Of a DNA stretch of 64,000 nucleotides, positions 4,014 through 56,433 are shown piece after piece (positions within the stretch are counted from its first letter, which is position 1; each line of letters opens with the position of its first letter). The position numbers were made by a program, and so were the translations under genes. The notes under the pieces are model-generated. The model was not told where the DNA came from. It ran no database searches and was given only the letters and a program-made list of their open reading frames with translations. Source of the stretch: Candidatus Doudnabacteria bacterium (GTDB taxonomy: Bacteria > Patescibacteriota > Doudnabacteria > UBA920 > O2-02-FULL-48-8); NCBI GenBank assembly GCA_023246005.1, contig JAHFJG010000007.1:7312-71311 (forward strand). The letters run 5' to 3'.

Positions 4014-4101
4014 GGAGAGTTGCGCCGAATGGTAAGGCACCAGTCTTGAAAACTGGGGCCCCGTAAGGGGCTTGCAGGTTCGAGTCCTGCACTCTCCGCC
4101 A
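4014..4101 (+). tRNA. tRNA-Ser (anticodon TGA), class II with long variable arm, encoded CCA
   Basis: Acceptor GGAGAGT/ACTCTCC. Anticodon stem CCAGT/ACTGG with loop CTTGAAA. Variable arm GGCCCCGTAAGGGGCT. T-arm GCAGG-TTCGAGT-CCTGC. Ends in CCA. Confidence 0.85.
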
Positions 4102-4617: not shown

Positions 4618-4692
4618 GCGCTCGTCGTTCAACGGATAGGACTCAAGCTTGCGGAGCTTGTAATCGAGGTTCGATTCCTCGCGAGCGCACCA
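4618..4692 (+). tRNA. tRNA-Arg (anticodon reads GCG from the sequence, which is unusual), encoded CCA
   Basis: Acceptor GCGCTCG/CGAGCGC. D-arm GTTC-AACGGATA-GGAC. Anticodon stem CAAGC/GCTTG with loop TTGCGGA. T-arm CGAGG-TTCGATT-CCTCG. Discriminator A then CCA. Confidence 0.7.
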
Positions 4693-4744: not shown

Positions 4745-6814
4745 ATGTTTGACCTTACAATTCCAATTGAACAACTTTACTTGGTCGGTCCGGCGCGCGC
4801 CAAGTTGCTGAAAAACCTTGGCATCAAGACACTGGAAGACCTGCTTTTTTATTTTCCCCGCGCCCACAATGATCTGTCCAAGTTTACCTTGATTGCCGAT
4901 CTGAAACTTGGCGATAACGCCAATGTTAAAGCCAAAATTTTGGAAGTCAAAAGTTTCCGCACCAAGATCCGCAGATTTACTCTGACCCAGGCTTTGATCG
5001 AGGACGATACTGCGAGTATTCTTTGCGTTTGGTTTAACCAACCGTTTCTGACCAGAGTTTTGAAAAAAAATGAATACTTTATTTTTTCTGGCAAAGTCAC
5101 AATTAGCAAAAATAGGCTGCAGCTGCAAAACCCAGTTTATGAACAAGAACGGGACGAGCAGATTCATACTTCCCGCCTTGTTCCTCTCTATTCTCTAACT
5201 GCCAATCTAACCCAAAAACAATTGCGCTACATTATCAAAACTTATCTTGATAAAGTTACGATTCCTGAATATTTACCCAAAGATATTTTACAGAAAGAGA
5301 AGCTATTAAATGAAAATTACGCGGTCAAAACCTTCCACTTTCCTAAAGATTATTCGGCTCTAAATCAGGCGCAGAACCGTCTGGCATTTGATGAAATCTT
5401 CCAAACCCAGGTGCGTGTCCTGCAATATAAAAAAACGCGCGAGCAAAAAAATTCTTTCAAAATTAATGTTGATGTTGATTTAGCCGACAAAATAAAATCA
5501 CTCTCATTTGAATTAACAGCGGGACAAAAACAAGCCCTAGCTGAAATTATTAATGATTTTAAAAAGCCTTTCCCGGCCAATCGCCTGCTTGAAGGCGATG
5601 TCGGATCAGGCAAAACCATCATCGCCGCTCTGGCAGCTTATTTAATGGCTCAAAATGGCCTTCAGACTGCAATTCTGTCACCTACTGAAGTCTTGGCCAA
5701 TCAGCATTATTTCAACTTTTTAAAGCTGTTTGCCCGCGATAATTTTGATATAGCGCTTCTGACTTCTTCGCAAGCCCATTTTAACGGCAATCCTGCTACT
5801 CGCGCTACAGTTATTTCTCAAATTACATCGGGCAAAGCCAAAATTATTTTAGGCACCCACGCGCTGTTGGAAAAAGAAATTAAATTTGCCCAGCTTGGTT
5901 TGGTCATAATCGATGAGCAGCACCGCTTTGGCGTGCAACAACGCTCAATCCTGAAGCAAATCAGCAATGCCCATCTCCTGACCATGAGCGCCACTCCGAT
6001 CCCCCGCACTCTGGCTCTTACTTTGTACGGCGATTTGGATTTATCGCAACTAAAAGAGTTGCCGGCAGGCCGTCAGAAAATTTTAACGAAAATCGTGGCT
6101 GAAGAAAATCGAACCAAAGCTTACGAATTTATTGCCAAACAAATCGAATCCGGTAGACAGATATTTGTCATCTGTCCTCTCATTGATGACTCGGATAAAT
6201 TAGGAGTTAAATCAGCCACAGCTGAATTCAAAAAATTAGCCAACGAAATATTTCCACAATTCGAAGTTGGGCTTCTTCACGGTAAACTCAAAACCGCTGA
6301 AAAAGAAAAAACTATGCAGCAATTTTCCGCCAAAGGCGGATCCGCCTCCGGCGGAAAAGACTCCTATATCGACATTCTGGTGTCCACATCTGTGATCGAA
6401 GTTGGCGTGGATGTGCCCAATGCATCTGTCATGATGATTGAAGGCGCCCAGCGGTTTGGCCTGGCCCAGCTTCACCAGTTCCGCGGCCGCGTGGGCAGAA
6501 GTGACCATAAATCGTATTGTTTCCTATTTTCTGATGATCCAAACAGCATCAACAATCCTAGACTACAAGCTCTGGTGGAAAGCAATAATGGCTTTGATCT
6601 GGCGGAAAAAGATCTGCAAATCCGAGGAGCCGGCGATCTTTATGGCACCAAGCAATCAGGCTATGATTTTAAAATCGCCAGCCTGAACAATCTAGATTTA
6701 GTTGAGCGGTCCCGAAACTATGCTGAAAAACTTTTGGATCAAGATATTAACTTGAACAATTATCCCCTTTTGAAACAAAAAATGGATAGTCAACCCCTTG
6801 TGCATTTGGAATAA
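4745..6814 (+). CDS. recG: ATP-dependent DNA helicase RecG
   Basis: N-terminal wedge/OB region. Walker A DVGSGKT. DEQHRFGV. The C-terminal helicase motifs VIEVGVDVPNASVMMIEGAQRFGLAQLHQFRGRVGR closely match E. coli RecG. Confidence 0.9.
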   Translation: MFDLTIPIEQLYLVGPARAKLLKNLGIKTLEDLLFYFPRAHNDLSKFTLIADLKLGDNANVKAKILEVKSFRTKIRRFTLTQALIEDDTASILCVWFNQPFLTRVLKKNEYFIFSGKVTISKNRLQLQNPVYEQERDEQIHTSRLVPLYSLTANLTQKQLRYIIKTYLDKVTIPEYLPKDILQKEKLLNENYAVKTFHFPKDYSALNQAQNRLAFDEIFQTQVRVLQYKKTREQKNSFKINVDVDLADKIKSLSFELTAGQKQALAEIINDFKKPFPANRLLEGDVGSGKTIIAALAAYLMAQNGLQTAILSPTEVLANQHYFNFLKLFARDNFDIALLTSSQAHFNGNPATRATVISQITSGKAKIILGTHALLEKEIKFAQLGLVIIDEQHRFGVQQRSILKQISNAHLLTMSATPIPRTLALTLYGDLDLSQLKELPAGRQKILTKIVAEENRTKAYEFIAKQIESGRQIFVICPLIDDSDKLGVKSATAEFKKLANEIFPQFEVGLLHGKLKTAEKEKTMQQFSAKGGSASGGKDSYIDILVSTSVIEVGVDVPNASVMMIEGAQRFGLAQLHQFRGRVGRSDHKSYCFLFSDDPNSINNPRLQALVESNNGFDLAEKDLQIRGAGDLYGTKQSGYDFKIASLNNLDLVERSRNYAEKLLDQDINLNNYPLLKQKMDSQPLVHLE
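6333..6360 (+). repeat. R1 mini-element copy inside recG, in frame (encodes GGSASGGK)
   Basis: AAAGGCGGATCCGCCTCCGGCGGAAAAG. It coincides with ~10 extra residues relative to canonical RecG, between ...MQQF and ...VIEVGVD. Confidence 0.6.
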
Positions 6815-6875
6815 TCCTGCTAAAATAATTGCGTTCATGTACTGCTAGTTCACCCCAATCAGACAGGAGGTTTCC

Positions 6876-7065
6876 TATGCCCCAAGCGGATCAGCTCGGC
6901 CGCAAGATGCGCAAGCAGGTTGCCAAGTTCCGCAGTCAATTGGCGCGAAAAAAGATCCATACGAAAACGGATCTCGACGCCATGACCCGTGACATGCACC
7001 CTGAGGACTACAAACGCATCGCAGGTCTGATTCCGCACGTTTTCCCGGCGGCACGGCCGTCGTAA
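6876..7065 (+). CDS. small basic hypothetical protein (63 aa) in a GC-rich island
   Basis: Strong SD AGGAGG 7 nt upstream of the ATG. Local GC about 55-58% against about 38% background. Confidence 0.35.
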
Positions 7066-7174
7066 GATCAACGCTTCGTTGTCGATCGGAGGTGCGTTGT
7101 GGGACACGCTCGCCCACCACCCCAAACATTGCTTCTGTCCACCCGACTATTAACGCACATCGTGGAGACAAGCA

Positions 7175-7399
7175 ATGGCAGACCAAACTTTCCCATTCGT
7201 GGTAAGAGTCAACGGAAATATCAGATTCGTTCAACCGCAGCCCTTCAAGGAAGGAGCCCAGGCCACAATCGAAGGCGCGATGCCTAACGGTCAATTCGTG
7301 CATGTAAGGGAGCACAACCGACCTTTACATATTGACCGGTTCGACTTAAACGACGAGCAGCTGGATCTCATCCGTAACAAGCACAAGAGAGACTCGTAG
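7175..7399 (+). CDS. small hypothetical protein (74 aa) in a GC-rich island
   Basis: SD GGAGA before the ATG. GC3-rich codon usage atypical for the rest of the window. Confidence 0.35.
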   Translation: MADQTFPFVVRVNGNIRFVQPQPFKEGAQATIEGAMPNGQFVHVREHNRPLHIDRFDLNDEQLDLIRNKHKRDS

Positions 7400-7590
7400 A
7401 TAAAGTTTAAAGGCCTGAAGAGCAGAAAAAGGGGTAAATGACAGTCAATTCTGTGCTTCAGACTTTTAAGCGTGTTACCTTAGCGGTGAGAGACAACCTG
7501 ACTCCCGATGACTGTCGGGAAGGCCAAACTCAACCCAAAAGGTGACAGCCAGGTGGCTCACTACCAGCGGGCCACCTGGTCTATTTTCCC

Positions 7591-7624
7591 GCCGAAACGG
7601 CTTCCGTTTCGGCTTTTTTATTTC
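7591..7624 (+). terminator. rho-independent terminator (GCCGAAACGG cttc CGTTTCGGC plus T-run)
   Basis: 9-bp stem plus TTTTTTATTT. Two GC hairpins precede it (7504-7519, 7549-7579). Confidence 0.6.
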
Positions 7625-7663
7625 GACGAAGTCGAAATACTCCGACCGCGGAGCGCGTCGGAG

Positions 7664-13352: not shown

Positions 13353-13363
13353 TTTGTTATCTG

Positions 13364-13807
13364 TTATCTGATATCTGTTTTCTGACGTATCAGTTCTTTC
13401 TCTTCTTCTGTTTTCTGGTCAAGCAAATATGCTAACTTTTTCAGTCTGCTCTGATCCGGTTCCTCGATGCGCCCTATTTTTGCTGGAGCTGGTTTAGCTT
13501 TTTGGGTTCTAACAACAATATCAACTTCTTCGCGTTTAAAAATCCTAACCTGCGGCTTGGAAAAAAAGCTGACAAATGCCCCTAGGTAAGCAAACATAGG
13601 CCGGCCATTAAATTTCGCAAACCCCACGGCAACGCCGATCAAGGTTACTGGTAGAGCAAATAAGAAAAAGAACACTGAAAACTTCAATAATGAGTAAAAA
13701 AACAAATCAACTCCGCCAGTGGCCAATAAAAACAAAAACTGCTTGAGAGTCAGAGGACCGATTAGTTTATCCTCAATGTCAGTGAATTGCGGTACGGCAA
13801 ATTGCAT
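13364..13807 (-). CDS. PrgI-like small membrane protein (2 TM), putative T4SS component
   Basis: Two hydrophobic helices and a charged C-terminus, adjacent to virB4 and virB6-like genes. Call rests on size and context only. Confidence 0.35.
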   Translation of the reverse strand: MQFAVPQFTDIEDKLIGPLTLKQFLFLLATGGVDLFFYSLLKFSVFFFLFALPVTLIGVAVGFAKFNGRPMFAYLGAFVSFFSKPQVRIFKREEVDIVVRTQKAKPAPAKIGRIEEPDQSRLKKLAYLLDQKTEEEKELIRQKTDIR

Positions 13808-14755: not shown

Positions 14756-14792
14756 AAAAAGGTTGTAGGTTATAGTTGGTAGGTTGTAGTTA
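14756..14792. repeat. left arm of a ~35-bp inverted repeat bracketing the 4HB gene 14790-15152
   Basis: AAAAAGGTTGTAGGTTATAGTTGGTAGGTTGTAGTTA. Reverse complement of 15226-15260 begins with the same 14 bp AAAAGGTTGTAGGT and shares GGTAGGTTGTAG. Confidence 0.6.
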
Positions 14793-15152
14793 GGACTTAT
14801 CTAATTCTTGGGTCATCTTATTAAGCATGCGCATTATTTCATCCAAAAGATCAACCACGATCAAACTTTTGGCATCATTCCCAAAACCAAGCTTTTTAGA
14901 AATTATCAACTGAGTTTCTAATTCTGCGCCGGATCCATAAGCTGTGAATAAAAAATGACGGTAATCTTTTTTAGTTCCACGCTTACTACCTTCAGCAATA
15001 TTTGACGGGATCGAAACCGCACATCTACGCATTTGGGAAGTCAAACCAAATTGTTCTTCTCGAGGAAAATCTTTTGTTAATCCATAGACTGCAACCACCA
15101 GGTCTAGGGATTTTTGCCAAACAATGAGATCCTTATAAGATGATAAACTCAT
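14790..15152 (-). CDS. four-helix-bundle protein (23S-IVS protein family)
   Basis: Classic motif KDLIVWQKSLDLVVAVYGLTKDFPREEQFGLTSQMRRCAVSIPSNIAEG. Confidence 0.85.
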   Translation of the reverse strand: MSLSSYKDLIVWQKSLDLVVAVYGLTKDFPREEQFGLTSQMRRCAVSIPSNIAEGSKRGTKKDYRHFLFTAYGSGAELETQLIISKKLGFGNDAKSLIVVDLLDEIMRMLNKMTQELDKS

Positions 15153-15225: not shown

Positions 15226-15260
15226 TCTACAACCTATAACCTACCACCTACAACCTTTTA
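15226..15260. repeat. right arm of the inverted repeat bracketing the 4HB gene 14790-15152
   Basis: TCTACAACCTATAACCTACCACCTACAACCTTTTA. It abuts the stop codon of the upstream gene. Confidence 0.6.
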
Positions 15261-16730
15261 TAGTCTTTCAATTTCCTTACGAAGGTCTGCGATTGCTTCA
15301 AATTCTTGCAGCGTCAAATCGCTGCCGGCTTTGTTCGCGGCATTTTTGAACACCACTGTTCTATCAGCATTATTATCATGAATCATGGCAGAGCCAATTT
15401 GCAGATAAATCTTAAACAATGGGCTTTGTTCAAAGGCATTAACGACATAATACGGCAACAGCCGGTTGGCTTGCGCCAGATAAATGATTCGAGATTGGAG
15501 ATTCGAGATTTGAGCTTGCAAAGTTCCCGCGCGCAGATAGCTTAAATCAACTTTTTTCAAATCATCAACGATTTGAATATCATTTAATGATTTCGAAGGA
15601 GTCAATTTGACTGAAGCGGGCCTGTAATAATTCTCCGGTGCGACTGAAGACGGCAGAAACTTTGTAGGTAAAGGAACGGGCTTTGAGATCCGCAATCCTG
15701 AATTCATTTCAGGATCTCTTTTTTGAGATACTGAAACCCCTGAACTTGATTCAGGGTCAGCATTGCGAGGCGGAGAAACCAATTCCGGAGTTTTCACTTC
15801 ACGCTTAATTTCTTCCGGCGTCATCTTCACAAGCGTTTGTTTGCTGCTATCTGATATCTGTTTACTGATCCCTGTTTCCCCCATTTGCCGCCGCAAAACT
15901 TCCAGGTCTTGGCCGTGAGAAGGAGTTGGTGGTCTGGGAGGAGTTCGTGGTCGTGGGGCAACTGGTATATTCTGATTTTTAACAACTTGCTGGAAATCTA
16001 CTGTTGCTTCTTCAAAGGCTGTTCCGTATTTGAGCCAATCATAAAGCTCTAGAATAATAAGCAACAACTTTCGATCGGTATTGGACAACTTCCGGACAGT
16101 TTGGTTCTGATTTATGTACGTAATCCTTTCTATAGCTCCTCTTGTTTCGAGTATAGGTCCTGCTTTTCTTGTGTTTCGATCATAATCCAATAACCAGTTG
16201 CCTATTGAGGGTGGGACATTTTTATCTGCTATTGTTAGGGGATTACTACCAACTGTAACAAAACTCCTAAGCATGATATTAGCCAATGACTCGGCAATCG
16301 CTCCTTCTTCTCTAACGTCATCATAAACATTTAAAACATCCTGAAACTTTTCTTGGATTGGTATTTTGGCCTTTATTGCATCTGTCAGATGGTTCTTGAT
16401 CAAATTTTCTATTTCTGCAAAGGGCCTTGAGGACAAACATTCAAATTTCAACAGGACTATCAATTTCTGATATTTTTCGTACAGCTCCGGGGACTCAGTT
16501 TTCAGTTCTGGGTATTTGCCAATCAATATGTCTTCCAAAAGCATCCGAGCTTTCAAGGCCTCTTCCCGGTTATCAAACTCAATGCTTCCTTCAACTATTT
16601 GCTTGAACTGCTCAAAAACCTCCGGATATGCTAACTGCTTTCTGTCCGTGATGAAAGACAATGGTGTTGTATTACCAACCACAGCGGAGTTAGATGTTGT
16701 GCTTTGCTGAATTAGAGTTTCGTCTGGCAT
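15258..16730 (-). CDS. hypothetical protein (490 aa, Pro-rich linker), T4SS-locus associated
   Basis: Intact ORF between the 4HB gene and the VirB6-like gene. PRPRTPPRPPTP linker. No recognisable catalytic motif. Confidence 0.3.
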   Translation of the reverse strand: MPDETLIQQSTTSNSAVVGNTTPLSFITDRKQLAYPEVFEQFKQIVEGSIEFDNREEALKARMLLEDILIGKYPELKTESPELYEKYQKLIVLLKFECLSSRPFAEIENLIKNHLTDAIKAKIPIQEKFQDVLNVYDDVREEGAIAESLANIMLRSFVTVGSNPLTIADKNVPPSIGNWLLDYDRNTRKAGPILETRGAIERITYINQNQTVRKLSNTDRKLLLIILELYDWLKYGTAFEEATVDFQQVVKNQNIPVAPRPRTPPRPPTPSHGQDLEVLRRQMGETGISKQISDSSKQTLVKMTPEEIKREVKTPELVSPPRNADPESSSGVSVSQKRDPEMNSGLRISKPVPLPTKFLPSSVAPENYYRPASVKLTPSKSLNDIQIVDDLKKVDLSYLRAGTLQAQISNLQSRIIYLAQANRLLPYYVVNAFEQSPLFKIYLQIGSAMIHDNNADRTVVFKNAANKAGSDLTLQEFEAIADLRKEIERL

Positions 16731-27843: not shown

Positions 27844-29121
27844 ATGATTCAAAATTCAGATCAGCGTTCTTCTGTCTCTTTCTTCAAAAAACTTTCGGAA
27901 ATTTGGAAAACAAACAGCAAATTCACAATCCATCCTTTCAAATCCCTGCACTCACGACACCTTCTGCCTCTGTCCGTTCCTGACTATGCCGCGCGTTTTA
28001 GTTTTGAACTTGTCATATTGACAATCGCAATCTTCGCAGTAATCGTAAATTTTTCTCTTAATAATCACGCTAACCACATCTCCTCTTCTGATCAAAGCGT
28101 GATTTTTTCATTTTTAAAAAATAATCCAAACCTCAATCGCAACCTTTTAACAAATTCCGACACAACCACTATTCTTGCTCAAACCGACCAATTAATTGCC
28201 AAAGCTCAAGCTCAATCAACATTGGGAGTGGTGCTCACTTCAACTCAAATTCTAAACTCAAGACCTAACCCGACTACCATTCAAGAAGATGTAATTTTGA
28301 AAACCAATCCGGCTGATACCCAAAATACTAATCGACAAGGACTGACCAAATATGATGTTGCTCCAGGCGATACCATTACTGGCATTGCTTCAAGTTTCGG
28401 CATTTCGCCCCAAACAATCATGATGGAAAATAAGCTGAATGAAAACACAGTCTTGAAGCCAGGACAAGAACTGACCATCCTGCCGACCACAGGCATTACC
28501 TACACGCTCAAACCAAGTGACACGCTGGAATCAATTTTGAACAAATACAAAATTTCTGAAAATGATTTTCTTGATGCTAACAACATTGAATCATTCAATG
28601 ACTTGGATATCGGCAGTATTGTCGTCATCCCAATGCAGAATGTAAGTTTGCCCCAGGCGCCAAAGCCCCGATCTAAATTCGTTCTTGATGAAACTAACAA
28701 AGTAGCCTTGAAACAAGCTCTGGCGCCGGATAATCTGATTACAGGCCCAATTAGTTTTATTTGGCCAACTTCAGTTAAAAGCATTACTCAAGGATTTTCT
28801 CGCCGCCATTCTGGCATAGACATCTCTGACAGTAAAATGGAGCCAATTTACGCAGCAGCCGACGGTTTTGTCGAGATTTCAGGATATCAGGCCAATGGTT
28901 ACGGCAATACCATAGTCATTAACCATGGTGGCGGGTTTAAGACGCGTTATGGGCATGCTTCCGAGCTTTATGTCCAAGCCGGAGATTTCGTCAAAGCTGG
29001 CCAGCTGATTGCCAAACAAGGCCGCACAGGACGCGTCCGTGGAGCGACTGGAATTCACTTGCATTTTGAAATCATAAAAAATGGGATACATGTTAACCCC
29101 CTGGAATACGTCAAGCCATAA
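27844..29121 (+). CDS. LysM-domain M23 family metallopeptidase (peptidoglycan endopeptidase)
   Basis: Two LysM-like segments (YDVAPGDTITGIASSFG..., YTLKPSDTLESILNKYKIS...). M23 motifs HSGIDI...GYGNTIVINHGGGFKTRYGH...HLHFEI. Confidence 0.8.
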   Translation: MIQNSDQRSSVSFFKKLSEIWKTNSKFTIHPFKSLHSRHLLPLSVPDYAARFSFELVILTIAIFAVIVNFSLNNHANHISSSDQSVIFSFLKNNPNLNRNLLTNSDTTTILAQTDQLIAKAQAQSTLGVVLTSTQILNSRPNPTTIQEDVILKTNPADTQNTNRQGLTKYDVAPGDTITGIASSFGISPQTIMMENKLNENTVLKPGQELTILPTTGITYTLKPSDTLESILNKYKISENDFLDANNIESFNDLDIGSIVVIPMQNVSLPQAPKPRSKFVLDETNKVALKQALAPDNLITGPISFIWPTSVKSITQGFSRRHSGIDISDSKMEPIYAAADGFVEISGYQANGYGNTIVINHGGGFKTRYGHASELYVQAGDFVKAGQLIAKQGRTGRVRGATGIHLHFEIIKNGIHVNPLEYVKP

Positions 29122-29222
29122 ATCAGATAACAGTTAACAGTAAACAGATAACAGAAAACAAACCCAACATCGCATTGCTGGGTTTTATGTTATCTGATAT
29201 CTGATTTTTGTTATCTGACTCT
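29122..29222. terminator. extended imperfect palindrome with central terminator-like hairpin in a convergent gene junction; carries CAGATAACAG / CTGTTATCTG motif copies
   Basis: ATCAGATAACAGTTAACAGTAAACAGATAACAG...AACCCAACatcgcattGCTGGGTT...TGTTATCTGATATCTGATTTTTGTTATCTG. Confidence 0.5.
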
Positions 29223-29224
29223 TG

Positions 29225-31027
29225 CTACTGCACTGCTGTTCCGCGAGCATTCATGACATCATCATCAATATCACTGGTGGAGACAGAATTGATCATGTTA
29301 GTTTGAATCGGTAAATTGACAAAGGTATCAGTACCGGTTGCCTGAACATTGCCAAGTAAATTAATAAGCTTACCGCGATCTGCTTCGTTTGGCGTGACTT
29401 CAATTTGGAAACTAACTTTCAACGCAGGAATAAATTTGCCGGTAAAAGCGCCGAGAGTTCCGATGTTCCAGCGGATTTTGCCAGAATTAGGATCATAACT
29501 TAGCCGGTTTTTTTCTGAATCTGGAACAATCGCGTTTTTCCAAGCTAAAGGAGAAAGCGGCATTGAGGCCGTAACTAAAGTGTCTGACAAATCATTGCTT
29601 AAATTAGTCAAAAGAAAAGTCATTTCAAACAAAGTCGATTTCCCAACCTGCATCGGAGCAGCGCCTGACAAATAGTTGCCATTAACCGTTAAACCTAAAC
29701 TGGAAATTAATTTCAATTCTGAATTGGCGGCTTTGGTCGGCGTGGCAATTTCATCAGAAAAAATTGATCCCGAAGCGGTAATTGTTTGATTTTTAAGATT
29801 AGTCGATAAATCGCTTTTGACTGGTACTGTAAAATTAATTTCTCCTTTTTCGGTTGGAGACAAAACTGTCAGATTGCTCAATGTCGCCGATTTCCAAGTC
29901 AGAATATTGCCAGTAATAATCGCATTCTGGGCTTGAATGTGGGTTAAGTCTAACGCTGGCCCATCCAATTTGATGGTAATCACCAAATTGCTCAATCCAA
30001 TATTGCCTTGATTGGCATATTGCAAGGTATAATTAATCGTATCTCCAAGCTTCACAAAATTATTTTGTTGGGTTTTGATAATCAAAGCGACCGAAGACGG
30101 AATTATTTTAAATGTCGCGGTCGCGGCAATTTGCGGCGCAAAAGTATTATTAATCAGCTGTCCTAAATCAGCGCGCACAAGAGCGTCTTGCGATGAATCG
30201 CCGGTGAAGCTGCCTGTAATGTCAATGCTAGCTGTATTGTTAGCGCCAAGCTTGCTAATATTCCAGATATTTTTGTTTTTAGTCGGAGGTGGATTAGAAG
30301 AAGTAAAACTAAAGCCTGCTGGATAAGTCAATTGAACCGCTAAATTATCAAAATCCTGGGACGAAACGTTTGTAAAACTAACTATGAAAGTAGCGTCTTG
30401 GCCATTTACAACATCAACCGGCCCATTAACGTCCATAGTCAGATTGGGAGGTAAAATATTGGTTATCAGGCTTTGTTCTGCCAAAAATTCCGAATTAAAA
30501 TTTGATAATTTATAATGCAAACGGGCTTTAATTTCCTTACCCTCGCCAGTTGAACCTGAAAGTTTGCCGCGAATCATCACCTCGCCGTCTTGGCCTTGCT
30601 TTAAAATCGGCAAATTAAAAGTCTGGCCGGAAGAAGAAACGGCTGTCGGAGTTGCTGATTTAAATTTAAAACCAGTTGGATAAAACATTTCCAGAGAAAT
30701 TCCGACTAAGTCGGCATTTTCACCATTGCGGTAGACGATATGATACTCGGCTTCATTGTCTGAAGTTAACTGGGTTGGGCCTTTAACAAAAATCAAAACA
30801 TTAGTCGAGGTTGGGCTGGGCTGCGCGTTTGAGCGAAACAAAAAATACCAAAAAATACCAAATATAAGGATCAGCAATCCGATTGTTCCAAAAATCAATT
30901 TTGGATTTTTAAAAAATTTCTTTCCGCCAGAGACGCCCGCCTGCCCGGCCGGCAGGGATCCGCCTTCCGCGGACCAACCAGTGGGAAATTCGGCTCTAGT
31001 TTTGTCGTCTAATATTTGGTCGTTCAT
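29225..31027 (-). CDS. membrane-anchored surface protein with tandem Ig-like (DUF11/CARDB-like) repeats
   Basis: The N-terminus carries an R1-type motif (GGSLPAGQAGVSGGKK) and a TM helix, followed by several roughly 100-aa beta-rich repeats. Confidence 0.4.
   Translation of the reverse strand: MNDQILDDKTRAEFPTGWSAEGGSLPAGQAGVSGGKKFFKNPKLIFGTIGLLILIFGIFWYFLFRSNAQPSPTSTNVLIFVKGPTQLTSDNEAEYHIVYRNGENADLVGISLEMFYPTGFKFKSATPTAVSSSGQTFNLPILKQGQDGEVMIRGKLSGSTGEGKEIKARLHYKLSNFNSEFLAEQSLITNILPPNLTMDVNGPVDVVNGQDATFIVSFTNVSSQDFDNLAVQLTYPAGFSFTSSNPPPTKNKNIWNISKLGANNTASIDITGSFTGDSSQDALVRADLGQLINNTFAPQIAATATFKIIPSSVALIIKTQQNNFVKLGDTINYTLQYANQGNIGLSNLVITIKLDGPALDLTHIQAQNAIITGNILTWKSATLSNLTVLSPTEKGEINFTVPVKSDLSTNLKNQTITASGSIFSDEIATPTKAANSELKLISSLGLTVNGNYLSGAAPMQVGKSTLFEMTFLLTNLSNDLSDTLVTASMPLSPLAWKNAIVPDSEKNRLSYDPNSGKIRWNIGTLGAFTGKFIPALKVSFQIEVTPNEADRGKLINLLGNVQATGTDTFVNLPIQTNMINSVSTSDIDDDVMNARGTAVQ
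30930..30965. repeat. R1 mini-element copy (long variant) in the 5' coding region of 29225-31027
   Basis: Minus strand GGCGGATCCCTGCCGGCCGGGCAGGCGGGCGTCTCTGGCGGAAA. Confidence 0.55.
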
Positions 31028-39649: not shown

Positions 39650-42600
39650 TTAATAATCAGTCGATCGATAGCCGGATAATACAGAGCTGTCCACAACTTT
39701 TATCTGGCTAAACTTATAGCCTTGAGTGATGAAATCTTCCATGGATCTAAACGGTCTAATTTCAACGCTCCTAACCACTACATAAACCGTATTGTTGTCA
39801 GCAGTCTTAAGCAATGTCCCGCTAGGATACCTGCTGATTGACACGCCTTTAATCCGAGGGCCAACAGGCGCCCCAATAGGCACTGCCAGGTCAGCCAGGT
39901 TAGCGGAAACTATCTGTCTGAACTTATTGCCCCAAGAAAAGAAAATGCTTGAGGATGGAAAAGCGTATCGGTAGCTGCGACCCATGAAATAGATTGTCCC
40001 GTTGTCATTAACTAACGTGCCTCTGGGATGTCTATGGACAATGTCTGTGACGTCAGAGCCTTGGGCAATGCTGGATATATCTGCATCTATGATATTGGAG
40101 AGTTTGTAGCCGAGACCATAGAAGACACCCATGGAACTAAAAGCTCGCTTCAGTCCATTTTCAATCACATAGATCACGCCATTATCCTTAACCAAGGATC
40201 CATCATCATATTTGGTTGTTGGAGCTGGATTAGGCGTGGGTGTGGGAGTAGGAATCGGTGTTGGCGGTGGTGGAGGTGGTGTGGGTGTCGGTGTTGGAGT
40301 GGGCGTCGGAGTAGGAGTAGGAGTCGGAGTCGGAGTCGTGGTAATGGTCAGAAAATCTTCTGCGGACCAGCCGTCCACGCCGGAATCGTAATTGATCTGC
40401 CACCAGTTGTATCCTCCCGAAGCGATAGAACCGGCAATAACCGTTCCCAAGGCGCCCGTCGGCTGCGTCCCCAAAAGTGTCCCGGTCATGGATGCCGTAG
40501 CGCGGACATTAAGAGGCCCGGAGGAAACCTGCACGCGATTGCTGATGGTGAATTTTGTGGAAGGAGTAGGTGTCGGCGGAGTATTAACTGTCACCGTCAC
40601 GGACTGACTCGTGCTCCCTCCTGCACCGGAACAGGTCAGCGTGTAGGTCGTCGTCGCCGTGGGGAACGCCGTCGAATTTCCGAAGACTGCTTGTGTTCCC
40701 GCCCATCCGCCCGAAGCGGTACACGCCGTCGCGTTCGTTGATGACCATCCGAGCGTCACGGATGCGCCCGCGGTTATGGCGTTGCTCGAAATCGAGAACG
40801 ATAAAGTGGGAACTGGTGTAGGAGTAGGAGTAGGAGATATTGTCCAACATGCGGTCATTGGCGCATCAAGATTCAGATTCTTTTTAATAGAGCTGAATCG
40901 CATACTGTTCATGACAGGACAGAAAGTCGCGGTGTTCCCGGAATATTCGGCGTTGAACACGGCCTTACCCGCATTAATGAAAGGCACAAGCGTACTGCAT
41001 TCGTTGTACTGGTTACACTGCTCATCAAGAGCCCAATCGAAATCACCAACCAGGCTCGTGACCTGACCGACGTCATTTTTGAGTCCGATGGACAACCCTT
41101 TACCGTGCGCCGTCGTGGCGAGGAAGCGATTATAAGTGATCTGGTCATTTGCGGTCAGAGGAAATCCGGTGCTGTTCGAGTAGCCATCGATATTATCGGG
41201 CTCTATGGCATCGCAACCTTTCTGCACTGCAAGGTCCATCCGCGCGTTCATGATCGGGCCCAGGATGCTCGTCTGGCGAATGTCCAGCCAATTTTCGCCC
41301 GGCCAACCGTTGCCATTGCCTTTGACCGACGCAGGGAAGCTTGCCGCGTCAGTGCGCCAGTTCTCGTAGGTTCCGGCGCTGATATAACAGATGACCTTCC
41401 TGCCTGCCGCATGGAGCGAAGTAATGGTTGTTGCGGAGTTGTCGAAAAGATCGATGTCGTAGGCCTGCGCGTTGAAACTCTGATCAACGGTCCCCGTAAG
41501 TTGCCACTGCCAAGTCGTCATCGGAGCGGGGTACCAAATATTTGCGGCGGGTGTTGGAGTCGGTGTTGGAGTCGGTGCGGGCGTCGTCGTCTTTACGAGA
41601 TAATCTTCTGCGGACCACCCGTCCACGCCGGAATCGTAATTGATCTGCCACCAGTTATATCCTCCCGAAGCGATAGGGCCGGCAACGACCGTTCCTAGGG
41701 CGCCCGTCGGCTGCGTTCCCAAAAGCGTTCCAGTCGTGGATGCCGTAGCGCGGACATTAAGAGGTCCGGAGGAAACCTGTACGCGGTCACCGATAACGAA
41801 TTTTATGGAAGGAGTAGGTGTCGGCGTTGGGGTTGGGGTTGGCGTTGGCGTGTTGCTATACAAATTAGCAGGCATAGCATTGCCGGCAGCTTCCCAGATG
41901 TACTGGGTCAACGAGGGCGAAGAGCAGAAACCCCGGGTGACGCCGGCATCCGTGCACATTTCTTTTTTAATCCTAGCTTCATTCGGCCAGCTCCAGAGCG
42001 GATTCGAAGTCAACGTATTGAATCCCGCATCACCCCAAAAAGTCCCGTCTTGCCCGTAAGCGTACATCACGTTTGCCCCATAATCCGCTCCCCCGTTCCC
42101 CGTACCCTTGAGTGACGATCCATTTTCTATCCGGGTAATGTATTTAAGCGAACCATCCGTTAAAGGATTCGTAGTTTTACAACCCACGCTGCAGGTGGCG
42201 TCACCATAAGCGGGCGTAACATTATTATCTATATAAGTTGGAGTAACCGCTCCGAAATAGCCATAGCGTCCGGATCCCGCAGCAATGAGGTTTTTCGCCG
42301 AAGAGCTACCGGCATAGTGGACATTGATAACATCTCCATTATTATTAGAAGAACTCTTATACGCCGTCAGATTCTGAAGGACCGCCTGTTGGTCGGTGCA
42401 ACCCTGGCACTGGGAGTTAAAGCCGGTCCCCCGGGGGTTCCATGCGACGTCATCCTTATAGATCGCAGCTGGATTAGTAACTCCCGAGGTATTGTCGGTA
42501 TCGGTGGTAAACGCGCTGTATTGGCTGTTAAGCGAAATACTGCCTAGCCATTCGTTGCCGCCAAAAGGATGAGTTCCGGCATTCGTGTGCCACGCCGTCC

Positions 42601-43537
42601 AAAAATCCGCGCCGCCGCCGAATCCCGCGGGCCCCAGAATATTGTCCAAAGCCATAACGTTTTGCAGCGAGGCCTGACTGGTGTTATAGATGGTGGTCGC
42701 GCTCATGTAATTGCCGGAGTTGCTCCCGCAATAATCTGCGGAGGAGTTGCAACCGTCGTTTCTTAAAATGACTCGGCGCAGAACGATATGGTCCGCATTG
42801 AGTGGAGCAAATGCCTTGCGATCGTTGCCCCAAAGCCAACTATCTTCGAGTGTGATATAAGAAGAAACAAGATTTCCATTATTATCGTTTGTGCCGATAT
42901 TGAAGACCCCGTTACCTCCGCTATTGTCCGTCACCCCTATGTTTTTGAAAAAGAGGTGGTCGCCATGATAGATGCCGACGGCGTGAGCAATTTTAAAACC
43001 TTGAAATTTAATGAACTTCTTCGTGATAGGGATCGTGCCAAGCTGGATCGTATCGATAGTCACTGCGCCATCGTTCAATGCGATGATTTTCGTCATGGCG
43101 CCGACGGCCGTACCATCTTGCGGCACACCGGAAGGCGCACCCGAATTCTGATTGATCGCACCGTTCACGGCCGAGGTATACGCTCCATCCATTAAGTACA
43201 ACGTGCCGCTGGCAGGCAGAGCCGAGAACGCCTTGGCAAACGTCTTGAAAGAAGTAGATTGAGAAGCGCCGTTATTCGAATCAGAGCCAGTCGGGGAAAT
43301 ATAATAGATTGACCCGGTGCCGGCCGCGCTGGCCACGTTTGGAGTTAAAATAACATCGGCGCCAGAAATTTGATTAAACAAAACCGTGCCAACTAATAAA
43401 GAGATGAAAATAAAAATAACCCAGTGAAAGAGAGGATATGTCTTGTGCATATGCCATTTGGAATAGCCTTTGTATTTTTGTTCCAGCATCTCGTGCAATT
43501 TTTGCATATTCTGTTTTGCTTGGTAAGCAATCTTCAA
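39650..43537 (-). CDS. giant secreted multidomain surface protein: beta-helix region, two SH3b domains, GH114-like glycoside hydrolase domain, Pro-Thr linkers, C-terminal tandem ~60-aa repeats
   Basis: N-terminal TM or signal. GH114-like YDIDLFD...VICYISAGTYENWR. Duplicated SH3b module. (PT)n linkers. C-terminal repeats TVYVIENGLKRAF...GYKLS. The central 3 kb is GC-rich. Confidence 0.55.
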   Translation of the reverse strand: MKIAYQAKQNMQKLHEMLEQKYKGYSKWHMHKTYPLFHWVIFIFISLLVGTVLFNQISGADVILTPNVASAAGTGSIYYISPTGSDSNNGASQSTSFKTFAKAFSALPASGTLYLMDGAYTSAVNGAINQNSGAPSGVPQDGTAVGAMTKIIALNDGAVTIDTIQLGTIPITKKFIKFQGFKIAHAVGIYHGDHLFFKNIGVTDNSGGNGVFNIGTNDNNGNLVSSYITLEDSWLWGNDRKAFAPLNADHIVLRRVILRNDGCNSSADYCGSNSGNYMSATTIYNTSQASLQNVMALDNILGPAGFGGGADFWTAWHTNAGTHPFGGNEWLGSISLNSQYSAFTTDTDNTSGVTNPAAIYKDDVAWNPRGTGFNSQCQGCTDQQAVLQNLTAYKSSSNNNGDVINVHYAGSSSAKNLIAAGSGRYGYFGAVTPTYIDNNVTPAYGDATCSVGCKTTNPLTDGSLKYITRIENGSSLKGTGNGGADYGANVMYAYGQDGTFWGDAGFNTLTSNPLWSWPNEARIKKEMCTDAGVTRGFCSSPSLTQYIWEAAGNAMPANLYSNTPTPTPTPTPTPTPSIKFVIGDRVQVSSGPLNVRATASTTGTLLGTQPTGALGTVVAGPIASGGYNWWQINYDSGVDGWSAEDYLVKTTTPAPTPTPTPTPAANIWYPAPMTTWQWQLTGTVDQSFNAQAYDIDLFDNSATTITSLHAAGRKVICYISAGTYENWRTDAASFPASVKGNGNGWPGENWLDIRQTSILGPIMNARMDLAVQKGCDAIEPDNIDGYSNSTGFPLTANDQITYNRFLATTAHGKGLSIGLKNDVGQVTSLVGDFDWALDEQCNQYNECSTLVPFINAGKAVFNAEYSGNTATFCPVMNSMRFSSIKKNLNLDAPMTACWTISPTPTPTPVPTLSFSISSNAITAGASVTLGWSSTNATACTASGGWAGTQAVFGNSTAFPTATTTYTLTCSGAGGSTSQSVTVTVNTPPTPTPSTKFTISNRVQVSSGPLNVRATASMTGTLLGTQPTGALGTVIAGSIASGGYNWWQINYDSGVDGWSAEDFLTITTTPTPTPTPTPTPTPTPTPTPPPPPPTPIPTPTPTPNPAPTTKYDDGSLVKDNGVIYVIENGLKRAFSSMGVFYGLGYKLSNIIDADISSIAQGSDVTDIVHRHPRGTLVNDNGTIYFMGRSYRYAFPSSSIFFSWGNKFRQIVSANLADLAVPIGAPVGPRIKGVSISRYPSGTLLKTADNNTVYVVVRSVEIRPFRSMEDFITQGYKFSQIKVVDSSVLSGYRSTDY

Positions 43538-43597
43538 AAGCTTCCAAAAAATAAAGCTTAAAGAAGCCCCAATAATTGCTCTATTTAATTGTTTTTT

Positions 43598-43645
43598 CCG
43601 CCAGAGGCGCCTGCCTGCCCGACCGACAGGGATCCGCCCGATTTG
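43598..43645. repeat. R1 mini-element copy (long variant) just upstream of the giant surface-protein gene
   Basis: Minus strand GGCGGATCCCTGTCGGTCGGGCAGGCAGGCGCCTCTGGCGGAAAAAAC. It encodes GGSLSVGQAGASGGK followed by a stop codon. Confidence 0.55.
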
Positions 43646-43936: not shown

Positions 43937-44319
43937 GGGGCTGTTTAGATTCGACAAAAGTTCTTTGATAAATACTGCAAGTCCGATTAGCCTAATTTCT
44001 CGGTTAAAAAAATAAGGCAAATCATAAATGCCAATTCTTTGGTAAGCAAGATTAAGAACGCTTTTGCGTTCTCTCCTGCTTTGGCAGTCGCTTAAACAGT
44101 TACTGCCCATCTGTCCTGCAAAGTCTGTGCGCAGATCACAGGTGTTATATTATCGGACTTACTTTAGTTGACGCCTGACAGCTAAAGGACACTTAAGGCT
44201 GACCTTAAGGCGCTTTGGTCTGCTTCTATGTCTTAAGGGAAATTTTAAAGCAGTCTAAGCTTGTAGAAGTATTTGTTAAAATCTTTTGGACGGGAGTGCA
44301 AATCTCCCCAGCTCCACCA
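43937..44319 (+). ncRNA. ssrA: tmRNA (ssrA)
   Basis: 5' end GGGGCTGTTTAGATTCGAC. 3' end has T-arm GGGAG-TGCAAAT-CTCCC, acceptor CAGCTCC, then ACCA. G3-U70 pair. Candidate tag reading frame ends ...AFAFSPALAVA*. Confidence 0.7.
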
Positions 44320-51649: not shown

Positions 51650-51775
51650 TTGACAGTTCCATTAAGGTCGGTTGGGGAAGTGGGCGTAAATCCCACACTG
51701 TGCCGCAACTGTAATTGTTACGTGTTACATGATAAATGTTACGTGACTTAAGTCAGAGTACCAACCAACTGTCAA
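51650..51775 (+). promoter_or_regulatory. candidate cobalamin (AdoCbl-type, short variant) riboswitch aptamer
   Basis: P1 TTGACAGTT/AACTGTCAA encloses GGGGAAG..GGGCGTAAATCCCAC..CTGTGCCGCAACTGTAA (compare consensus AGGGAA..GGTGnAAnTCC..CCCGCnACTGT.A) and a B12-box-like AAGTCAGAGTACCAACC. Confidence 0.45.
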
Positions 51776-56358: not shown

Positions 56359-56433
56359 TCGGGCGTAGCTCAGCGGTAGAGCAGCTGACTGTTAATCAGC
56401 GGGTCGCTGGTTCGAATCCAGCCGCCCGAGCCA
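56359..56433 (+). tRNA. tRNA-Asn (anticodon GTT), encoded CCA
   Basis: Acceptor TCGGGCG/CGCCCGA. D-arm GCTC-AGCGGTA-GAGC. Anticodon stem GCTGA/TCAGC with loop CTGTTAA. T-arm GCTGG-TTCGAAT-CCAGC. Ends G-CCA. Confidence 0.85.

Follow-up and report, generated by a model that had tools for sequence, protein, structure and literature searches.

A 30-nucleotide double-hairpin repeat lying in frame within recG of a Candidatus Doudnabacteria genome and within unrelated genes of other bacteria

Several families of short palindromic DNA resemble, each in part, the element considered here, a 30-nucleotide (nt) double hairpin that lies in frame within the recG helicase gene of a Candidatus Doudnabacteria genome (contig JAHFJG010000007.1; the whole stretch of 64,000 nt that was analysed is hereafter called the window). 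The Rickettsia palindromic elements (RPEs; Ogata et al. 2000, reviewed in PMC10969869) are repeats of about 100-150 bp, in families confined to Rickettsia, whose encoded peptides are tens of residues long. Repetitive extragenic palindromes and the mosaic elements that they form (REP/BIME; Di Nocera et al. 2013, PMC3733652) are GC-rich palindromes of 20-40 bp, frequently head-to-head dimers and mostly extragenic, although some are intragenic, notably in replication and repair genes such as uvrA and uvrB, and there encode short peptides. In tagged REPs the stems measure 5-13 bp and one end bears an unpaired GTAG or CGTC motif; mobilization of REPs has been proposed to occur in trans by RAYT tyrosine (HUH/Y1) transposases (PMC3733652). 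[quoted passage not shown] The GC clusters of fungal mitochondria, for example GC42 of yeast, are short, mostly intergenic GC-rich hairpins with substitutions biased to the loops, and their units merge and shuffle into composites; they show putative target-site duplications and spread between lineages by homologous recombination of their flanks, the mechanism of their mobilization being unknown (PMC4478555).

Comparison of the recG insert with relatives of its host gene, and with like sequences in other genomes, indicates that it is probably a copy of a selfish, non-autonomous family of mini-palindromes, 30 nt long (51 nt in a three-hairpin variant) and without coding capacity.

The insert in RecG and its recurrence among relatives

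RecG is a conserved repair helicase that is not generally essential, contrary to its description as an essential helicase in an earlier note made on this DNA from the sequence alone. The host gene (4745-6814, plus strand, 689 amino acids, aa) was identified from its open reading frame (ORF), Pfam domains and structure matches, and its product unites the wedge domain, the superfamily 2 helicase core and the RecG C-terminal domain with full-length similarity to RecG. The domains, assigned on the homologue cluster, are wedge PF17191, DEAD/ResIII PF00270, Helicase_C PF00271 and RecG_dom3_C PF19833. Homologues are named 'ATP-dependent DNA helicase RecG' of Candidatus Doudnabacteria, a lineage of the Patescibacteria or Candidate Phyla Radiation (CPR), and the structure of Thermotoga maritima RecG (PDB 1GM5) is matched over residues 3-663 with E = 2.3e-147, the E. 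coli-type RecG 9wm0 with E = 2.8e-105.

When the window protein is aligned with 119 homologues, a length of 679 aa proves typical of Doudnabacteria RecG, which reads ...MQQF-KDNxLxILVSTSVIEVGVD..., whereas the window protein, at 689 aa, reads ...MQQF-SAKGGSASGG-KDSYIDILVSTSVIEVGVD.... An in-frame insertion of about ten residues, as reported in the earlier note, is thereby confirmed, but the inserted residues are SAKGGSASGG, encoded at 6326-6355, and not GGSASGGKDS. The insert is absent from the nearest RecG relatives (77-78% identity). At the codon level (L-numbers denote the loci or stretches compared, P-numbers the RecG relatives in the alignment), the empty alleles L005, L006 and L007 read CAA TTC|AAA GAC, and the window reads CAA TTT-TCCGCCAAAGGCGGATCCGCCTCCGGCGGA-AAA GAC, with the codons TCC GCC AAA GGC GGA TCC GCC TCC GGC GGA between TTT and AAA. 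Filled and empty alleles thus differ by a net gain of exactly 30 nt without target-site duplication, and the Phe and Lys on either side of the insert are already present in the empty alleles. On the plus strand the double hairpin, TCCGCC-AAA-GGCGGA|TCCGCC-TCC-GGCGGA, reads S-A-K-G-G-S-A-S-G-G, which occupies residues 528-537 or 529-538 according to the assignment chosen for the neighboring F and K. The 28-mer AAAGGCGGATCCGCCTCCGGCGGAAAAG of the earlier note does occur in the window, a single time, at 6332-6359, one base off the range of 6333-6360 given for it before; it was matched in 0 of 100 shuffles.

The same position of the helicase domain (F^K) is filled in P0001 and P0047 with SAKGGSASGG, in P0041 with SASGGSASGG and also, in a lineage about 50% identical, in P0117 with SARGGSASGG, while P0026 and P0038 carry long forms there, that of P0038 being SAGGGSLPAGQAGASGG, the 51-nt variant (L002:4819). 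A site in the wedge domain (N^K) is filled in P0009, P0038 and P0073 and holds a degraded copy in P0081, and further RecG sites are filled in P0118, in P0029 (a long form) and in P0089 (degraded). In all, the element is found at at least four RecG sites besides the helicase site, and the helicase site is occupied in at least four to five separate lineages. The alleles of the wedge site are AAT|AAA and AAT[30 nt]AAA, no direct repeat having been created, and the wedge-site 30-mers at L002:3574 and L006:10367 are base-for-base identical to the helicase-site 30-mer of the window. These identities, together with the copies in unrelated genes described below, bear out the claim that the insertion is a copy of a dispersed palindromic repeat.

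The closest matches of each insert-bearing RecG are insert-free sequences, and Fitch parsimony on neighbor-joining trees requires five or more changes for the helicase site and four or more for the wedge site in 50/50 bootstraps; the helicase site has therefore been repeatedly gained or precisely lost. Across RecG lineages that are 50-68% identical, and that were gathered by protein similarity and not by DNA pattern, the insert codons (TCC GCC ... GGC GGA) are kept and the flanking synonymous sites have diverged, and conservation is therefore at the nucleotide level. One relative, P0047, looks mosaic over RecG residues ~510-545, being like the insert-free P0002 upstream (LLHGKMKPADKELVMQQF) and like P0001 downstream (SAKGGSASGGKDSYIDI), which suggests either the transfer of a filled allele through homologous recombination or a chimeric assembly. 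RecG has another hotspot with different inserts, near query residue 480 in P0007 and P0019 and near 482 in P0035 and P0104; these inserts (AAQEGRASLSEAER and AAPEGRASPIFDGR, and PARLNDISRSGG) may be translated copies of other repeat families.

In an AlphaFold2 model of the window RecG (mean predicted local distance difference test score, pLDDT, 81.5; built from 56 sequences), the insert (529-538) follows helix 517-528 and precedes strand 544-547, the strand that runs into motif V (STSVIEVGVD), and pLDDT falls below 50 at residues 531-539. In the alignment with 1GM5, the insert corresponds to a gap between ...MLEFAEG and RYDILVSTTVIEVG. The wedge-site copies map to a beta-hairpin turn of the same model, formed by strands 111-121 and 124-134. 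As modeled, the inserts at both sites are surface loops, and the helicase-site insert is predicted to be disordered, in keeping with the earlier expectation of a surface loop between helicase motifs.

Distribution and anatomy of the element

The phenomenon is far wider than the window genome. An exact-pattern scan for TCCGCCNNNGGCGGATCCGCCNNNGGCGGA, with one genome per GTDB species, returned at least 119 stretches and 130 copies among the matches listed, to which the counts in this section refer, and all of the stretches are metagenome-assembled genomes (MAGs). Those labelled Patescibacteria span many classes, namely Kaiser-, Portnoy-, Lipton-, Moran-, Campbell-, Terry-, Giovannoni-, Magasanik-, Davies-, Falkow- and Doudnabacteria as well as Saccharibacteria; other labels are Omnitrophota, Kiritimatiellae, Verrucomicrobiota, Lentisphaerae, Planctomycetales, Ignavibacteriota (in 1.6-Mb contigs), Bacteroidota, Chloroflexota/Dehalococcoidia, Desulfotomaculaceae, Firestonebacteria and 'Gammaproteobacteria'. 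The GC content of the host loci ranges from 30 to 70%. Copies number several per MAG, which is a low figure, and their occurrence is patchy. Distant taxonomic labels seem to have sub-families of the element in common as well.

Identical or like elements occur in unrelated genes of many genomes and in intergenic DNA. Among the matches listed, 74 of the 130 copies lie, in the S-A-x-G-G phase, inside stop-to-stop frames 150 or more codons long, and under stricter intragenic criteria (an ORF of at least 200 codons, with at least 40 codons on each side) the S-A-x-G-G-S-A-x-G-G phase is found in 45 of 49 copies (binomial p = 1.5e-17). The two other phases would read RRRIRLRR-like or PPxADPPxAE-like peptides, and the observed phase gives a flexible linker. 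Where the two strands encode differing peptides, the translated strand is the less hydrophobic option in 22 cases against 7 (p = 0.008). Twenty hosts were scanned against Pfam and 15 of these are recognizable conserved proteins, namely DnaG, PurA, two class II aminoacyl-tRNA synthetases, AdoHcy hydrolase, PheT, a metallo-beta-lactamase, UvrB, transketolase, amylase, FolD, Mfd, DnaE, HsdR and ArsA. The 51-nt variant occurs in seven metagenome stretches, in five of them in phase in ORFs, including genes besides recG. In a Kiritimatiellae MAG (L012:6246-6662), two copies with identical flanks lie beside DNA encoding ...HPERSEEPALSEVEG...IPRYARNDN..., strings that we take to be the translated form of a different short hairpin repeat that occurs in many phyla; hairpin repeats of more than one cross-phylum kind may lie in clusters.

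The unit of the element is a pair of abutting hairpins, TCCGCC-N3-GGCGGA, with 6-bp stems and 3-nt loops, and in the observed phase S-A-x-G-G-S-A-x-G-G results from either strand. Together with its TTT and AAA flanks, the recG copy forms a 36-nt near-palindrome (6323-6358), with an RNA fold energy of -23 kcal/mol on the plus strand (z = -4.8) and -28.1 on the minus strand (z = -6.2). RNA folding of this copy favors a long imperfect hairpin; nonetheless a reading as two hairpins is preferred, because the loop triplets, mostly A[AG]A with TC[CTG] or TTC, are fully complementary to each other in only 23 of the 130 copies. Degenerate copies, found as by-catch in the scanned loci, have compensatory stem changes (TTCGCC/GGCGAA and CCCTCC/GGAGGG), which suggests that the hairpins themselves are under constraint. 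A search of Rfam gave no family matching at the element.

In a logo of the 260 flanks of the 130 copies, T makes up 59/82/62% at positions -3 to -1, and the 3' flank mirrors this with A. Compared position by position, the logo is identical for genic and non-genic copies, and TTY|RAA therefore belongs to the element or to its target and not to codon usage. A strict test for TT/AA flanks had given a one-sided pattern, but in the per-position logos both flanks are T-rich (about 84% of flanks have T at -2), and a one-sided target asymmetry was accordingly dropped.

The window itself holds five members of the family including the recG copy, against an expectation of zero from shuffles. The copy that the earlier note placed near 534 is a real intergenic copy, although not the same element in the strict sense: it is a diverged variant, CATGCCAGAGGCAGA|TCCGCCTCTGGCGGA (531-560), with four substitutions in the left hairpin, lying between convergent genes according to gene calls on the same contig. 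Its 21-nt core matches directly at 540-560, and its best match to the recG copy is inverted (30 of 33 nt, 534-566 against 6320-6352), as expected because the element is a near-perfect 36-nt palindrome. The left arm CATGCC-N3-GGCAGA, followed by TCCGCC-N3-GGCGGA, is common to this copy and to L082:1345, from a MAG labelled Gammaproteobacteria. A single hairpin, TCCGCC-GGA-GGCGGA (632-646), shares the intergenic spacer of the 531-560 copy. The three-hairpin variant of 51 nt (30923-30973, minus strand) is in phase in the N-terminal tail of a 600-aa ORF (29225-31027), where it reads S-A-E-G-G-S-L-P-A-G-Q-A-G-V-S-G-G (SAEGGSLPAGQAGVSGG), and a cut-down form of this variant without the right hairpin (43597-43638) is intergenic and 89% identical to the copy at 30918. 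This truncated element lies about 300 nt upstream of the transfer-messenger RNA (tmRNA) gene (43937-44319).

Relation to known repeats and explanations of the element

Like the RPEs, the element consists of palindromic, probably selfish repeats that lie in frame in unrelated housekeeping genes, apparently compatibly with fold and function, and also between genes; it differs in its length (30 nt, or 10 aa, with a 51-nt variant), in its occurrence in MAGs of many labelled phyla and in having no sequence in common with RPEs. As a small, GC-rich, multi-copy palindrome, a 30-nt dimer of 15-nt hairpins, it recalls the REPs, but it is flanked by T-T-Y at the 5' end and by R-A-A at the 3' end, the 260-flank logo showing neither GTAG nor CGTC, it is mostly intragenic (the 74 of 130 copies in long ORFs, among the matches listed, being in one phase), and no RAYT gene, of the kind that REPs typically flank to form a REPtron, was found near its copies in the loci examined with approximate TnpA queries. 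GC clusters are brought to mind by the loop triplets, which vary while compensatory changes keep the stems in some degenerate copies, by the recurrent 51-nt composite and by the mosaic allele of P0047; here, however, bacteria are the hosts, most copies are intragenic and no duplication is made. A MITE is likewise a small non-autonomous repeat, and the halves of the palindrome can be read as abutting terminal inverted repeats, but the element is only 30 nt long, and TTC|AAA becomes TTT[30]AAA, and AAT|AAA becomes AAT[30]AAA, without duplication. Hairpin elements derived from IS200/IS605 (PATE-like) have ends set by hairpins, lack ordinary terminal inverted repeats and target duplication, and insert beside a short specific sequence. 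In the present element a lack of duplication and a short T-rich flank are observed, but the flank signal is two-sided, although one-sided in the strict TT test, and there is no room for guide sequences. Judged by sequence, then, the element appears to be set apart from RPEs, REPs, MITEs and GC clusters in being small, untagged, free of duplication, mostly intragenic and spread over cross-phylum labels. No description of it was found in openly searchable full text with the DNA string, the peptides and related terms (subscription literature being outside the search), and the string does not occur in the text or supplements of the REP survey (PMC3733652).

That the family is selfish is argued by its multi-copy dispersal, exact presence or absence, nucleotide conservation in unrelated genes and fixed flanks, and by the decay of some copies. 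Insertions would land in all reading phases, and selection would retain in genes just those through which a surface loop or turn gains a flexible Gly/Ser/Ala peptide (SAxGGSAxGG); translation of the copies, with purifying selection acting afterwards, is the best account of the biases in phase and strand. The recG copy is most likely a translated, near-neutral passenger between helicase motifs IV and V and not an adaptation of RecG. Because the element is too small for a gene, an enzyme supplied in trans would be needed to move it. This mover might be an HUH/Y1 transposase that recognizes hairpins in single-strand DNA, like those of IS200/IS605 and REP/RAYT; ends defined by hairpins and the missing target duplication point that way, but no such gene was found beside the copies in the loci examined, and the step is a guess, more probably wrong than right.

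Among other explanations, the one that survives best is that the element serves its host at the level of DNA or RNA, as a site bound by a conserved protein, a signal for recombination or repair, an element affecting mRNA stability or a hairpin at which ribosomes pause, and that selection maintains the genic copies. The stems are conserved across labelled phyla with some changes compensatory, the hairpin is very stable (-23 kcal/mol), and many replication and repair genes seem to be among the hosts, as is also the case for intragenic REPs (Di Nocera et al. 2013, PMC3733652). Yet the element is missing in the closest relatives at every site examined, its positions in host proteins are scattered, copies decay (P0081, P0089, L004), and there are few copies per genome with a patchy occurrence. 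A role as terminator on either strand is contradicted by the flanks of the recG copy, where a T-run stands 5' of the hairpin and an A-run 3' of it. Such service to the host is unlikely, if better placed than the alternatives that follow.

It is more improbable still that the 30 nt go untranslated, through ribosome bypass of the T4 gene 60 or mitochondrial 'byp' type or through removal from the mRNA. A strong hairpin does lie within the coding region, and mobile GC-rich hairpins are reportedly bypassed in one yeast mitochondrion (Lang et al. 2014, as cited in PMC4478555). However, the one-phase bias and the bias toward the less hydrophobic strand are sensible only if the insert is read, every copy has a length divisible by 3 and is free of stop codons in the phase that is read, and the recG copy has no matching take-off and landing codons (TTT ... 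AAA).

Hardly any credence can be given to a lineage-specific expansion of a RecG loop under protein-level selection, with a likeness to the repeat arising by chance. Gly/Ser-rich loops commonly vary in length and the model places the insert in a tolerant loop, but the same 30 nucleotides, not merely similar residues, are present at other RecG sites, in unrelated genes and in intergenic DNA, and by this recurrence chance expansion is refuted. In addition, insert-bearing RecGs are not monophyletic and shuffles give a chance expectation of zero for the sequence. A lineage loop unrelated to the repeat, the possibility that the earlier note had set against its own claim, is rejected by the conservation of the insert codons across the RecG lineages of 50-68% identity. 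An artefact of assembly, binning or the laboratory, such as a synthetic linker with a BamHI site, is the least credible of all: the genome matches are all MAGs, the core GGCGGATCC is like the synthetic Gly-Gly-Ser linkers that contain a BamHI site and the string matches in the literature are cloning primers, but many projects and assemblers have yielded assemblies with the element, some of them in contigs of 0.7-1.6 Mb, its loop bases vary and it has a discrete 51-nt variant, its insertion sites and flanks are inherited among related species, its phase and strand biases are biological signatures, and vector sequence flanks no copy.

A number of points nonetheless weigh against the element being a mobile, translated, selfish repeat. 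Translation of the intragenic copies and mobility in real time are both things that we infer. Recurrence at the same site could result in part from the transfer of alleles through homologous recombination. No mobilizing gene was found beside element copies in the loci examined. When IS200 and IS608 TnpA queries (approximate sequences) were run by tblastn against the window and about 0.9 Mb of loci, one IS200-like TnpA gene was found near a copy (L073), and it was rejected as the mobilizer, its end hairpins being unrelated to the element. All-against-all clustering of 1,995 ORFs from 119 loci gave no neighbor family recurring in more than five loci and none that is transposase-like. No polymorphism at the population level was seen for the window organism; an empty recG allele with its own flanks was not present in metagenome contigs, a result that is uninformative. 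The scan demanded perfect stems, which biases the spectrum of age and decay among the copies and leaves abundance and range partly sampled, and the taxonomic labels of its matches, all MAGs, rest on binning. Possible vectors were also searched, with no convincing match to the element among PLSDB plasmids and INPHARED phages and two ambiguous matches among IMG/VR viral contigs.

A broader proposition is that this is an undescribed family of 30-nt double hairpins, with modular 51-nt derivatives, on the move at present both inside and across distantly labelled phyla (Patescibacteria, Omnitrophota, Ignavibacteriota, Planctomycetota, Chloroflexota and others), colonizing essential genes as translated 10-residue loops and repeatedly hitting TTY|RAA; it is a possibility of some weight, short of an even chance. 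If it is true, and if an unknown trans-acting enzyme moves the element between phyla, this would be the smallest known protein-invading mobile DNA, and the element would naturally trace how DNA is exchanged between ultra-small symbionts and their neighbors. On the main reading itself, protein-coding genes of streamlined uncultured bacteria are being remodelled by a 30-nt selfish repeat. For annotation, the inserts account for many of the 10- and 17-residue SAxGG... indels in CPR alignments and should be masked for phylogenomics, and they flag insertion-tolerant loops in conserved enzymes such as RecG, DnaG, DnaE, UvrB, Mfd and tRNA synthetases. Reuse of identical sites and a sequence common to several phyla raise the question of which enzyme moves a 30-nt pair of hairpins without target duplication.

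Other features of the window

Downstream of recG, a spacer of about 850 nt (6815-7663) separates it from the next gene; it is kept in two close relatives (L005:4267-5106 and L007:2221-3003) and missing in L001 and L006. The spacer starts with a conserved GGAGG...ATGCCCCAA, which suggests a small ORF, and its last 250 nt hold conserved blocks, for example AGACTTTTAA..GGTGAGAGA..CCCGATGACAGTCGGGAAGG. It has no Rfam match even at E <= 1, and could, from its sequence conservation, comprise a small gene and an unknown structured RNA. Three tRNA genes lie in the window, at 4014-4098, 4618-4689 and 56359-56430.

A 33-nt inverted repeat, 85% complementary (14757-14789 and 15227-15259), brackets a 120-aa gene of the 23S_rRNA_IVP/bAvd family at about 14790-15152. 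A type IV secretion-like operon with a TraC-like gene, PrgI, a VirB4/TraG-type ATPase and TrbL has three such small genes, as well as GIY-YIG and PDDEXK_3 genes, scattered among its own (gene calls at contig coordinates minus 391). Relatives carry differing subsets of the interspersed small genes, which look like mobile cassettes.

A second repeat family, built of TATCTG/TTATCTGA units and unrelated to the GC-rich hairpins, occurs at 13353-13385, 15836-15882, 29118-29218 and 51714-51746, with an inverted pair (29123-29218) between convergent genes. Finally, a 1,295-aa ORF on the minus strand (39650-43537) lies in the GC-richest part of the window (50-56% GC); especially over 40217-41844 it has 12-nt periodic GTnGGn repeats that give Gly-Val/Gly-rich runs, and it contains an internal duplication of 285 nt with 85% identity.

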